Source of the DNA: an uncultured Candidatus Saccharibacteria bacterium | GTDB lineage: Bacteria; Patescibacteriota; UBA1384; DTJR01 | Direction of reading: 5' to 3' | DNA length: 64,000 nucleotides | NCBI GenBank assembly: GCA_964487045.1 | Contig: CAZAOT010000001.1 | Location: 151,863 to 215,862, forward strand | Shown here: piece after piece, positions 17,648-17,793 of the stretch | Layout: each line of letters starts with the position of its first letter | Numbering within the stretch: position 1 is the first letter of the stretch | Translations under genes and position numbers: made by a program | Notes under the pieces: model-generated | What the model saw: the letters and a program-made list of their open reading frames with translations, nothing else | Database searches by the model: none | Told to the model about the DNA's origin: nothing

Positions 17648-17793
17648 AAGCCCAGATAATCCGTAGGATTATATTTGGGGTTTGGCAAGAAGGACGTGAA
17701 GGATTCGAAAGGCGGAGGCGCGACGGCGCCGAGCCGGGGTCGACGGCAAAATCAGCAGATTTTGACCGGTGACCGAATCCCGCCCTCTCCGCC
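17648..17793 (+). repeat. GC-rich mini-insert ending in a 20-nt direct repeat of the tRNA-Ser 3' end (GAATCCCGCCCTCTCCGCCA, 17774-17793)
   Basis: Exact 20-nt duplicate of 17628-17647. The insert begins GGATTCGAAAGGCGGAGGCGCGACGGCGCCG. That head is about 85% identical to the start of the tRNA-fMet insert at 62.53 kb. Confidence 0.5.

Follow-up and report, generated by a model that had tools for sequence, protein, structure and literature searches.

In the 64-kb window (the whole stretch of DNA that was analysed), a tRNA-Ser(GGA) gene is followed on the same strand by a GC-rich insert that is bracketed by two copies of the tRNA's own 3' end. The locus comprises the following features, some of them nested:

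17511-17539, + strand: promoter-like site (TTGAGA, 17-nt spacer, TAAACT, with TG), the sole such site before the tRNA and the element
17559-17647, + strand: tRNA-Ser(GGA) gene with encoded CCA (ARAGORN; Rfam RF00005, 58.7 bits)
17627-17648, + strand: X1, the tRNA's own 3' segment from C56 to CCA plus one base; repeat copy 1
17645-17685, + strand: H1, a hairpin (CCAAAGCCCAGATAATCC / GGATTATATTTGGGGTTTGG) that starts within the CCA end
17684-17709, + strand: X', an antisense copy of the tRNA 3' segment (146-nt fold)
17710-17773, + strand: core folding as a three-way junction (alignment A2, pair counts; model R1, 88 bits)
17711-17735, + strand: P2 (GGC, GGA, GGCGC, GACG loop, GCGCC, GA, GCC)
17736-17738, + strand: J2/3 (GGG)
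17739-17773, + strand: P3 (G.U wobble; bulged A, 17765; AGCA loop, 17754-17757)
17774-17795, + strand: X2, the tRNA 3' segment again in sense orientation; repeat copy 2, forming the 3' side of closing helix P1
17794-17823, + strand: intrinsic-terminator-like hairpin and T-run

The direct repeat is exact and spans 22 nt (CGAATCCCGCCCTCTCCGCCAA, at 17627-17648 and 17774-17795), slightly more than the 20 nt claimed by the sequence-only reading, which had also placed the second 20-mer (17774-17793) one base off its correct position, 17775-17794. In 100 shuffles, the chance expectation for a 22-nt repeat of this tRNA-Ser was 0. Two other features that had been pointed out were borne out: the insert is GC-rich (0.62 over 17686-17796, as compared with about 0.40 for the window), and it holds an antisense T-loop motif, GGATTCGAA (17701-17709), the reverse complement of the T-loop sequence TTCGAATCC. 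This motif, which reverse-complements T54-C62 exactly, makes up the inner part of X'; towards the outside, X' is degenerate and its pairing is broken by bulges. The 126-nt insert has no ORF of its own, and the ORFs adjoining it are those of pyruvate kinase, an orphan protein and DnaG.

H1 has no T-run behind it and was not called as a terminator. Since the sole promoter-like site of the tRNA-Ser unit lies 5' of the tRNA and the sole terminator-like site 3' of X2, the element is, judging from these signals, co-transcribed with tRNA-Ser. As to the separate GC-rich island on the other side of the tRNA (16.1-17.46 kb), which had been taken as a hint of a mobile-element history, the island exists, but no tie to the trailer element was found. 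Its sole long ORF, of 291 aa, is an orphan without a family and returned only itself in a homology search, and Pfam and NCBIfam gave no families for the ORFs of this and other islands. Given these ORFs without families or homologues, the island was dropped as a source of the element's enzyme.

Both filled and empty versions of the site were found in relatives. In L101, whose DnaG is 79% identical to that of the window, the T arm of tRNA-Ser runs directly into the same terminator; this is the empty site that the sequence-only reading had proposed to look for, and it implies that the unit acts like an insertion and is open to loss. At the orthologous tRNA-Ser loci, L102 and L103 (DnaG identity 64% and 58%; L103 was the one useful relative from a DnaG-based metagenome scan for orthologous loci) have filled sites, with compensatory changes in P3. 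In L102, the tRNA is likewise preceded by the promoter sequence TTGAGAAATTACTCCTGA, and the place of H1 is taken by a hairpin that pairs the CCA end too but has no sequence relation to H1. The insert had been expected to be a processing signal if all relatives carried it within a transcribed tRNA trailer; L102 and L103 do carry it in the tRNA transcription unit, but L101 lacks it, so that this expectation held for only part of the relatives. The orthologues in the window and L102 are closer to each other than are the copies inside the window, which argues against a recent burst in this lineage.

Patescibacteria account for a large share of bacterial diversity and have tiny genomes with mostly single-copy tRNA genes. 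When contigs representing one genome per species were searched with a 23-24-nt core pattern, 100 stretches were recovered, ~90% of them in Saccharibacteria, Paceibacterota, Berkelbacteria and other CPR MAGs. Covariance model R1 gave 134 matches in 100 loci, nearly all in Patescibacteria genomes, and 0 matches in high-GC chance loci. The wider motif search that had been suggested thus revealed a core that recurs behind many tRNAs: a same-strand tRNA or tmRNA end lies <450 nt upstream of 105 of the 134 R1 matches, with 12 further matches at locus edges, and ~30 anticodon types are represented among the tRNAs that carry the element. The bounded DNA is therefore a conserved module rather than strain-variable cargo. 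Among the 78 tRNA genes that had not prompted the fetching of a locus, 15 bear the element and 63 do not; across samplings, a fifth to more than half of sampled tRNA genes bear such an appendage of ~110-190 bp. The order of parts is X1, H1, X' (antisense, T54 to the 3' end), a core of ~60 nt and X2 (sense, C56 to the 3' end). Decayed, interrupted and tandem copies also occur. Variants of P3 are independent of tRNA type (1/43 nearest neighbours) and appear to be lineage-specific.

The core fold is supported by covariation. In alignment A2, P3 is 95.9% paired with double changes at 13 of its 15 pairs, and the whole structure is 81% paired, as compared with 37-44% in slid controls. A G57.U85 wobble is found in 68 of 70 copies, which indicates that the tRNA-sense strand is the folding strand. 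The bulged A80 is invariant in alignment A2, J1/2, P2 and J2/3 are invariant or nearly so, and ~35 invariant nucleotides cluster at the junction of the 66-nt core. Pairing of the outer half of P1 is limited to about half of the copies. A hallmark of integron attC sites is present, namely a strand-specific imperfect hairpin with an extrahelical base (A80) and a G57.T85 pair, on the tRNA-sense strand only; R/L boxes (GTTRRRY) or dif-like arms were not found in alignment A2, nor was an integrase found nearby. By eye, and as a reading of the bare sequence, the P2 internal loop (CC-GGA-GC / GC-GA-GG) looks kink-turn-like.

The repeat arms follow strict rules. As at tRNA-Ser, the direct repeat starts at C56, and always at C56, in ~60 other loci, and it ends 0-3 nt past the gene end or sometimes 11-20 nt further (L080, L013b, L094); X2 never gains a CCA that is absent from the gene. 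X' is the exact complement of X and not a version of the tRNA 5' strands, as seen at 12 of 16 informative G.U positions (3 for the 5' strands); the G3.U70 of tRNA-Ala, for example, becomes A-U in the X' pairing. X2 is perfect in 27 of 62 copies, and the tRNA completed by X1 is intact in 58 of the 62. Where X1 and X2 mismatch, X' agrees with X1 at 98 positions and with X2 at 44, a bias that would also be expected from neutral decay of X2. A comparison of wobble-type with A.C-type changes in X' was significant only under a biased filter and weak after correction (odds ratio 1.4-1.7, p 0.04-0.2). The only inverted-arm sequences shared between copies are TCGAA... and ...GACCGA, both derived from the T loop.

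Several origins of such arms were considered and set aside. An aminoacylatable minihelix or tRNA-like domain was rejected because X' does not reproduce the G.U identity pairs, and at tRNA-Ser the CC of CCA is paired. Retro-copying templated by mature tRNA does not agree with an X2 that lacks un-encoded CCA and often includes 1-20 nt of trailer. A tandem inversion duplication by template switching would fit the direct-inverted-direct order, but not the conserved core or the CPR-wide spread. Lastly, a MITE or other non-autonomous transposon would be expected to have constant terminal inverted repeats and a fixed-length target-site duplication, a combination that is missing here: the arms copy each neighbouring tRNA and differ between copies.

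The window holds further trailers, again on the + strand:

28909-29160, + strand: two tandem non-canonical trailers behind an intron-containing tRNA (28640-28908)
47363-47472, + strand: canonical copy 2 (R1, 65.6 bits) behind tRNA-Ile(TAT) (47218-47292)
62527-62777, + strand: copy 3 (R1, 31 bits) behind tRNA-fMet (62413-62489)

R1 matches the window at 17686-17796 (88 bits), 47363-47472 (65.6 bits) and 62527-62612 (31 bits). The noted likeness of the insert's start to the tRNA-fMet trailer was thus recovered with the covariance model and extends to the tRNA-Ile trailer. In the tRNA-Ile copy, X2 is truncated, and a partial extra P3 and an X fragment lie behind it, up to 47508. In the tRNA-fMet copy, the core is split by two hairpins with GGTGGAA loops (62571-62597 and 62636-62662) and X2 comes in two pieces, CCGAATCC (62697-62704) and CGCCCCGCTACCA (62765-62777). 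Of the four trailers that had been grouped together, these three share the canonical core, but the one at 28909-29160 shares the outer architecture only: in each of its units, a terminator hairpin is followed by TGGGAAAAGGACTCGA, which is antisense to the T loop, then by ~55 nt and finally by a repeat of the tRNA 3' end, and the middle is different from the canonical core and folds weakly. Loci L006, L014 and L042 likewise keep the X'/X2 frame around other middles. The canonical core is thus not indispensable to the architecture.

Database searches matched the element to no described family. At the gathering threshold, Rfam returned tRNAs only for the window and two copies, and up to E 10 it gave only noise (13-32 bits, against thresholds of 42-70), with no ribozyme family (HDV-like, hammerhead, twister, hatchet and pistol included), group I/II intron, tmRNA or HEARO reaching its threshold; the group I intron model RF00028 did not match the element, yet it matched the real intron at 28597-28860. 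Moreover, the core has 66 nt, as compared with at least 200 nt for P1-P9 of a group I intron, and the base before X2 is C, where such an intron would end in G. Literature searches, also with a 19-mer of the core that contains no U, turned up no account of the trailer element, and 0 copies were present in 2.9 million viral contigs. No recombinase or transposase was found in or near the tRNA-Ser copy or recurring near the 93 other loci; clustering of the ORFs around these 93 loci returned housekeeping synteny only, and a search of the 8-kb loci and the 64-kb window for a cognate transposase gave nothing recurrent.

We also compared the folds available to the trailer. X1, H1 and X' form a single long predicted hairpin in 48 of 70 loci. 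In 30 of 31 loci, the prediction gives a strand-swapped fold a lower energy than the normal tRNA with the junction, the median difference being 5.8 kcal/mol; in 25 of the 31, the window's among them, this fold is also the minimum-free-energy structure. The energies take no account of the tertiary contacts and modifications of the tRNA or of the order of folding during transcription, and each of these favours the normal tRNA. The predictions hence show the hallmark of a bistable switch, two mutually exclusive pairings, X':X2 and X':X1, that share the strand X': the trailer folds are predicted to be bistable, X' pairing either with X2 or with the tRNA's own 3' end. Among class I tRNAs whose 5' part measures 62 nt, no locus was found where X2 alone can complete the tRNA.

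Taken together, these results lead us to favour, at a little under even odds, the view that the insert belongs to a Patescibacteria-wide set of structured elements in tRNA and tmRNA 3' trailers, and that it is an insertion module, transcribed together with the tRNA, that neutralises its own antisense arm by means of a decoy copy. The direct repeat first noticed consists of X1 and X2. Formally, the module would be inserted in the T loop, between tRNA positions 55 and 56, and the tRNA gene is left intact because its 3' end is duplicated. From this anatomy we infer the function as follows. In one state, X' would pair with X2 (P1, clamped by the junction) and the tRNA would be normal; in the other, X' would pair with X1, lengthening H1 into a long hairpin, and X2 would close the acceptor and T stems. 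X2 and the junction would be retained since they sequester the antisense arm, in which case selection would keep the fold in place even if selfish DNA had been the origin of the element. The sole clean route of loss would be recombination between X1 and X2, leaving the tRNA followed by the terminator. The host may also use the two-state fold, e.g., for gating pre-tRNA maturation.

The deep orthology and near-invariant core fit a host-beneficial RNA just as well. Such a cis-acting RNA, inherited vertically with the tRNA gene and built, for instance, as a structural switch or a junction that binds a protein or ligand, could gate tRNA 3'-end maturation or quality control through the choice between X':X2 and X':X1, and we consider it a possible alternative, with perhaps one chance in a few. 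It would agree with a junction that is near-invariant across CPR classes, with the covarying P3, its G.U wobble and bulged A, with tRNA-Ser orthologues that persist, with compensatory changes, at DnaG identities of 58-64%, with co-transcription, with the share of perfect X2 copies, with the absence from viral contigs and with the by-eye likeness of the P2 loop to a protein-binding motif. However, the element is dispensable, as seen from the empty L101 site and the 63 of 78 tRNA genes without it; many copies are decayed, interrupted or in tandem; a ligand, partner protein or regulated downstream gene is not known; and an antisense arm against one's own tRNA would be an odd design for a helper.

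We regard as unlikely, though not far behind a host-beneficial RNA, that the module is a new kind of intervening sequence of the T loop, in which the tRNA 3' end would come from X1 or, strand-swapped, from X2, and the junction, acting as a catalyst or by binding a factor, would select one of the two ends or excise the insert. If so, it would represent either RNA-level control or repair of tRNA 3' halves or a protein-less, self-neutralising selfish RNA or DNA, specific to CPR.

A little less probable again is a mobile mini-element acting at the DNA level, in which a single-stranded X':X hairpin would mimic the tRNA 3'-end duplex, a recombinase or HUH enzyme encoded in trans would target the T loop, and the core would serve as the recognition structure. 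Repeats that run from the T loop to the 3' end, some of them extended as in L080, L013b and L094, resemble integrase identity blocks; X' is templated, as a Watson-Crick complement; as in attC, the fold belongs to one strand and includes an extrahelical A and a G.T pair; an empty site and tandem arrays exist; P3 variants are common to different tRNAs and genomes; and tmRNA genes are targeted too. Nevertheless, no copy has a recombinase or transposase in it or nearby, the window lineage shows no recent burst and viral contigs hold no copies. In addition, the arms match their own tRNA in each copy, so movement between tRNAs would need both arms to be re-templated, for which no mechanism is known.

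Self-processing, either by a new small ribozyme that cleaves the trailer or by a strand-swapped excision that makes X2 the mature 3' end, appears improbable. In its favour are the invariant nucleotides concentrated at the junction of so small an RNA, the constant position directly behind tRNAs, a most stable predicted fold that places the element, in terms of topology, within the T loop between positions 55 and 56, with a normal T stem closing it, and the fact that tmRNA T loops and CPR tRNA anticodon loops are known intron sites (PMC11915505, PMC13011429). On the other hand, Rfam gave no ribozyme or intron match; H1 separates the tRNA from the element, so that a cut at the element's edge would not yield a mature 3' end; and the X1-completed tRNA is nearly always intact, with no tRNA found, among the class I tRNAs covered, that only X2 could complete.

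Finally, a decayed attL/attR scar of an integrase-borne island or prophage, or a chance repeat, is very improbable: the duplicated tRNA 3' end, on which the sequence-only reading drew, its start in the T loop and the empty site all stand, as does the GC-rich island adjoining the tRNA, but chance matches are not expected, no recombinase or integrase remnant was found, a scar does not account for the inverted copy of the tRNA segment inside the insert, the core is a conserved, covarying module, and the recurrence of the ~110-nt architecture and core, 134 times behind unrelated tRNAs, rules out independent decay of islands.

To our knowledge, a fold that holds both an antisense and a decoy copy of a tRNA's own 3' end is known from no organism. 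If the fold serves as a regulator, it would control tRNA maturation with nothing but RNA. A selfish element, by contrast, would persist in streamlined genomes without a protein of its own, having made its fold indispensable, and would be a further case of tRNA T loops being targeted by genetic parasites. In practical terms, trailer elements explain why CPR assemblies show unusual patches of high GC and tRNA ends that recur, can mislead tRNA callers as well as genomic-island callers that rely on tRNA-end repeats as att sites, and provide, in model R1, a sequence-specific marker for CPR DNA.

The element shares features with several known systems. Like islands and prophages of T-loop tyrosine integrases, it has a repeat that runs from the T loop to or past the 3' end and leaves the gene intact, uses both tRNA and tmRNA hosts, and has an empty site that recombination between the repeats restores. 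Unlike them, it measures 110-190 bp without any gene, holds an inverted copy and a conserved folded core, and lies behind many tRNAs per genome, within the tRNA transcription unit and always in the orientation of the tRNA. Integron attC sites and the attP(+) of CTXphi are also strand-specific imperfect hairpins in which one strand rebuilds a duplex site, with conserved extrahelical or wobble positions and a structure that is kept more than the arm sequence. However, the arms of the element are copies of the neighbouring tRNA and not R/L boxes or dif-like sites, its apex is a sequence-invariant three-way junction, and no IntI or Xer partner was found nearby.

Theta (HDV-like) ribozymes are small structured RNAs downstream of phage tRNAs, where they cleave the trailer and so assist in making the tRNA 3' end. 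With these ribozymes, the element has in common a conserved small structured RNA in the tRNA 3' trailer; it differs in its three-way junction in place of a nested double pseudoknot, the lack of an Rfam HDV match, its hairpin spacer, its copies of the tRNA 3' end and its chromosomal location in CPR, with no match in viral contigs. Riboswitch and attenuator platforms likewise offer one strand (here X') two alternative partners, and the junction could bias the choice; in the element, however, the competing helix is the tRNA acceptor/T arm rather than a terminator or an SD-sequestering helix, and there is no known ligand and no downstream gene under control. Group I introns in turn are structured, sporadic and non-destructive in tRNA-type genes, with the T loop as a hot spot (PMC13011429, PMC11915505), and in contrast to them the element has a 66-nt core without group I architecture or an Rfam match. 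Since the tRNA is completed upstream of the element, splicing is not required, unlike in group I introns.

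The gene for tRNA-Ser(GGA) occupies 17559-17647 (ARAGORN; Rfam), and CGAATCCCGCCCTCTCCGCCAA has two exact occurrences there, at 17627-17648 and 17774-17795, with none expected from shuffles. The sequence-only reading had taken this repeat of the tRNA's 3' end for an attL/attR footprint; the repeat is indeed exact, with the second 20-mer lying one base further along than had been given. The insert is as GC-rich as had been described (0.62 at 17686-17796 versus ~0.40 window-wide), its kin are present behind tRNA-fMet, as that reading held, and also behind tRNA-Ile, and it consists of four parts.

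Parts of the insert behind tRNA-Ser, in order
17645-17685: hairpin, starting within the CCA end
second part: GGATTCGAA, the reverse complement of the T loop
third part: GC-rich block
last part: second copy of the tRNA end, then a hairpin and a T-run

This insert belongs to a new, CPR-wide, structured element linked to tRNA and tmRNA genes. When a one-genome-per-species collection was searched with a degenerate 23-24-nt pattern derived from the window's three copies, matches were found in 100 stretches, nearly all in Patescibacteria (CPR) MAGs, including Saccharibacteria, Paceibacterota, Berkelbacteria, Kaiserbacteria and Nomurabacteria. A covariance model of the element (R1), built from an alignment of 70 canonical copies (A2), gave 134 matches in these 100 loci. 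It gave none in the seven high-GC non-CPR loci among them, whose pattern matches we therefore ascribe to chance, and none in 80 DnaG-centred metagenome loci of more distant organisms, the sole matches in the DnaG batch being two relatives of the window locus, L102 and L103. The pattern had no match in 2.9 million viral contigs, no Rfam family matched the element at any threshold tried, and a full-text literature search, core sequence included, did not find it described. A recognisable copy lies behind 15 of the 78 tRNA genes that were present in the fetched loci without being the reason for fetching them; in the window, three of six tRNA genes carry a copy and a fourth a non-canonical form.

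Copies in the window
17686-17796: R1 match, 88 bits
47363-47472: R1 match, 65.6 bits
62527-62612: R1 match, 31 bits, split by two additional hairpins
28909-29160: two tandem non-canonical trailers, each with a terminator hairpin, TGGGAAAAGGACTCGA, ~55 nt and a tRNA 3'-end copy

A same-strand tRNA or tmRNA gene ends less than 450 nt upstream of 105 of the 134 R1 matches (12 further matches lie too near a locus edge for the upstream gene to be judged); the hosts span about 30 anticodon types plus tmRNA, and the tRNA-to-core distance is typically 55-70 nt. The order of parts is constant: the tRNA's own 3' end (X1), a hairpin (H1), an antisense arm (X'), the core, and a downstream sense copy of the tRNA end (X2). 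X' is antisense to tRNA positions 54 to about 73 and follows each tRNA's T-loop variant (ATTCGAA, AATCGAA, ACTCGAA, and ATTTGAA where the loop is TTCAAAT). X2 begins at C56 and stops 0-3 nt beyond the gene, in occasional cases continuing for another 11-20 nt, and a CCA missing from the gene is never present in it, which points to DNA or the primary transcript, not mature tRNA, as its source. X' and X2 form the closing helix, P1, of which the tRNA-Ser direct repeat is one arm. Where the tRNA stems have G.U positions, X' matches the Watson-Crick complement of X 12 times and the tRNA 5' strand 3 times; P1 therefore amounts to a perfect duplex of the tRNA 3' segment and does not mimic the acceptor stem. 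Encoded CCA is absent from most CPR tRNA genes sampled (e.g., in L009, L018 and L066), with CA after the discriminator base; the window's trailer-bearing genes (Ser, Ile, fMet and an intron-containing one) all encode CCA.

The core, 66 nt from CG to CG in most copies, folds in A2 as a three-way junction with strands J1/2, AA(A/G), and J2/3, GGG. Its helix P2 (GCC, GGA, GCGC, GACG loop, GCGC, GA, GGC) is invariant except for one covarying pair, CG to GC, the window copy having the GC form. P3, of 15 bp, is paired at 95.9%; double changes affect 13 of its 15 pairs, and it has an invariant bulged A, an N-AGCA-N loop, and a G.U in 68 of 70 copies that identifies the tRNA-sense strand as the folding one. 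Pairing over the full structure is 81%, versus 37-44% with partners slid by 1-3 columns, and no shuffle reached the observed covariation. Rarer alternative middles occupy the same X'...X2 frame in L006, L014, L032, L042, L043, L065 and at window 28909-29160; in the last, TGGGAAAAGGACTCGA is the antisense T loop, the tRNA 3'-end copy is 14-16 nt with CCA, and the ~55-nt middles fold weakly and differ from the canonical core. The tRNA at 28597-28908 (acceptor TCCTCGG...CCGAGGA-G-CCA, Asn/Asp type) has a group I intron in its anticodon loop (RF00028, 47.3 bits, just below the gathering score of 50). Neither ARAGORN nor Rfam at the gathering threshold reported this tRNA. Its intron is in keeping with those that PMC13011429 describes in CPR tRNAs, and a GIY-YIG-like ORF immediately precedes the tRNA, at about 28360-28630.

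Relatives of the tRNA-Ser locus were sought via DnaG, about 1 kb downstream. L102 (DnaG 64% identical) has pyruvate kinase, tRNA-Ser, a small ORF and DnaG in the order seen in the window, and an orthologous element (91.8 bits). The L102 and window copies agree throughout distal P3 and in having P2 in its rare GGC/GCC form, and differ by two compensatory pair changes at the P3 base. The L102 H1 is unrelated in sequence, yet also pairs the CCA end as a hairpin, and X2 there is interrupted by a small inserted hairpin. In L103 (58%) the tRNA is inverted relative to DnaG, with the element still behind it. The closest relative, L101 (79%), starts in the tRNA-Ser T arm (CCAGGGTTCGAATCCCTGCCTCTCCGCCA), which runs directly into the same terminator and then the downstream genes: the empty site for which the sequence-only reading had suggested looking. 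The element is thus insertion-like and can be lost, and the simplest reading is an old, vertically inherited insertion removed in one lineage by X1/X2 recombination. Given this loss it is dispensable, though its fold is kept in place over long periods.

P3 variants look lineage-specific and are independent of tRNA identity: of 43 near-identical nearest-neighbour pairs, one sits behind matching tRNA types, an identical P3 occurs behind tRNA-Gly (L059) and tRNA-Ser (L095), and GCAAAATC-AGCA-GATTTTGAC is common to the window, L102, L039, L045 and L072, behind Ser, Phe, Asp and Ile. Some copies are tandem, others truncated, nested with additional mini-hairpins or situated beside tRNA fragments. 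At L052 7040-7230 a tandem duplication has decayed: a truncated 5' part of tRNA-Glu comes first, then a divergent element, then the complete tRNA-Glu gene, which has an element of its own. Elements are also interrupted, in either orientation, by hairpins (stem TTTCGNG/CNCGAAA) whose loop is GGTGGAA. The window has three matches to these hairpins against 0.08 expected, and they resemble a distinct, miniature type of insertion hairpin.

GGTGGAA-loop hairpins
window 62571-62597
window 62636-62662
window 702-720, reverse strand
L030
L102 4393-4419

A 34-nt motif, AACTTCGYTTCTYCGAARCTWCGCTTGGCAAGCC, stands at 47293-47326, directly after the tRNA-Ile CCA, and at 62778-62811, after the second CCA copy behind tRNA-fMet; in L034 and L074, elements are preceded by GTTCGAACTTCG-like strings. 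At 63020-63056 a tRNA 5'-half copy (GGTAGTGTAGCTCAGTTGGTTAGAGCGAAGGAATCA), resembling the 5' half of tRNA-Met, lies just upstream of that gene (63072-63146). Downstream of tRNA-Leu in L018 (1565-1700), tandem 41-nt units each end in the tRNA's last 12 nt (CTCCTCGCCCAC), a further route of tRNA 3'-end multiplication in these genomes. The GC-rich island adjoining tRNA-Ser, which had made a mobile-element history seem plausible, encodes an orphan ORF alone (291 aa, 16546-17421, reverse strand; no homologue besides itself). Such islands (3000-6100, 9000-10000, 16100-17460 and 37000-38000; 50-57% GC versus roughly 40% for the genome) contain long ORFs overlapping on both strands, for which no Pfam or NCBIfam families were found, and may be non-coding or hold orphan genes of foreign origin. 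An AdoCbl-II (cobalamin) riboswitch aptamer lies at 38592-38664 (40.7 bits; gathering score 36.5).

In the window, the element is predicted to be co-transcribed with tRNA-Ser as one unit, since the sole promoter-like site (17511-17539, its sequence kept in L102) lies upstream of the tRNA and the sole terminator-like site directly after X2 (17794-17813 plus T-run); H1 here has no T-run. In many other loci H1 is terminator-like, with an A/T-rich extension, and element expression there may rest on read-through. In 48 of 70 loci a single long hairpin is made of X1, H1 and X' together; the one in L013 is a perfect 20-bp palindrome lacking a distinct H1. When whole pre-tRNAs were folded from the tRNA 5' end through X2, the minimum-free-energy fold was usually strand-swapped, with X' paired to X1 and the acceptor and T stems closed by X2. 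Among 31 loci whose X2 is intact, this fold was predicted to be the more stable in 30, compared with normal tRNA plus junction (median difference 5.8 kcal/mol; in the window, -118.4 versus -108.8 to -112.6 kcal/mol, varying with constraints). These energies leave out tRNA tertiary structure, modifications and transcription order, all of which favour the normal tRNA, and we therefore read the models as two competing folds, not as dominance of the swapped one.

Our preferred reading, to which we give slightly less than an even chance, is that an insertion module duplicates the tRNA 3' end, and that X2 and the junction persist by sequestering X', which if free could unfold the neighbouring single-copy tRNA. 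Sequestration would account for a perfectly conserved X2 in 27 of 62 copies alongside a frequently degenerate X', for the fold's compensatory evolution in place, for copy decay after X' or X2 breaks, and for clean loss via X1/X2 recombination. At positions where X1 and X2 mismatch, X' pairs X1 alone 98 times and X2 alone 44 times, a bias also expected under neutral X2 decay; after removal of filter bias, wobble-type changes in X' outnumber A.C-type ones weakly. A host-beneficial switch or processing module is unlikely, if the best of the alternatives; it would draw on the two predicted folds, and the element's dispensability speaks against it. Rather less probable is an element acting at the DNA level, its folded top strand imitating the target duplex of a putative recombinase: P1 does reproduce the tRNA segment, and no transposase, integrase or other recurrent protein was found near 93 confirmed loci. 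A novel RNA that processes itself, or an intervening sequence in the T loop, seems improbable; topologically, the swapped fold places the element as an insert between positions 55 and 56 of that loop, and a search over class I tRNAs with a 62-nt 5' part found none completable by X2 alone. A conventional integrase scar, as the repeat had first been read, and chance are very improbable beside the constant part order and the covariation.

Phage theta ribozymes have in common with the element a position behind tRNAs. T-loop-type integrase att sites share its repeat geometry, attC and CTXphi attP its strand-specific hairpin logic, and CPR tRNA introns and tmRNA T-loop introns (PMC13011429, PMC11915505) its habitat. 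Each of these has a defining feature that the element lacks, and thus, while its function is something we infer, by its features we rate it as outside the known kinds.
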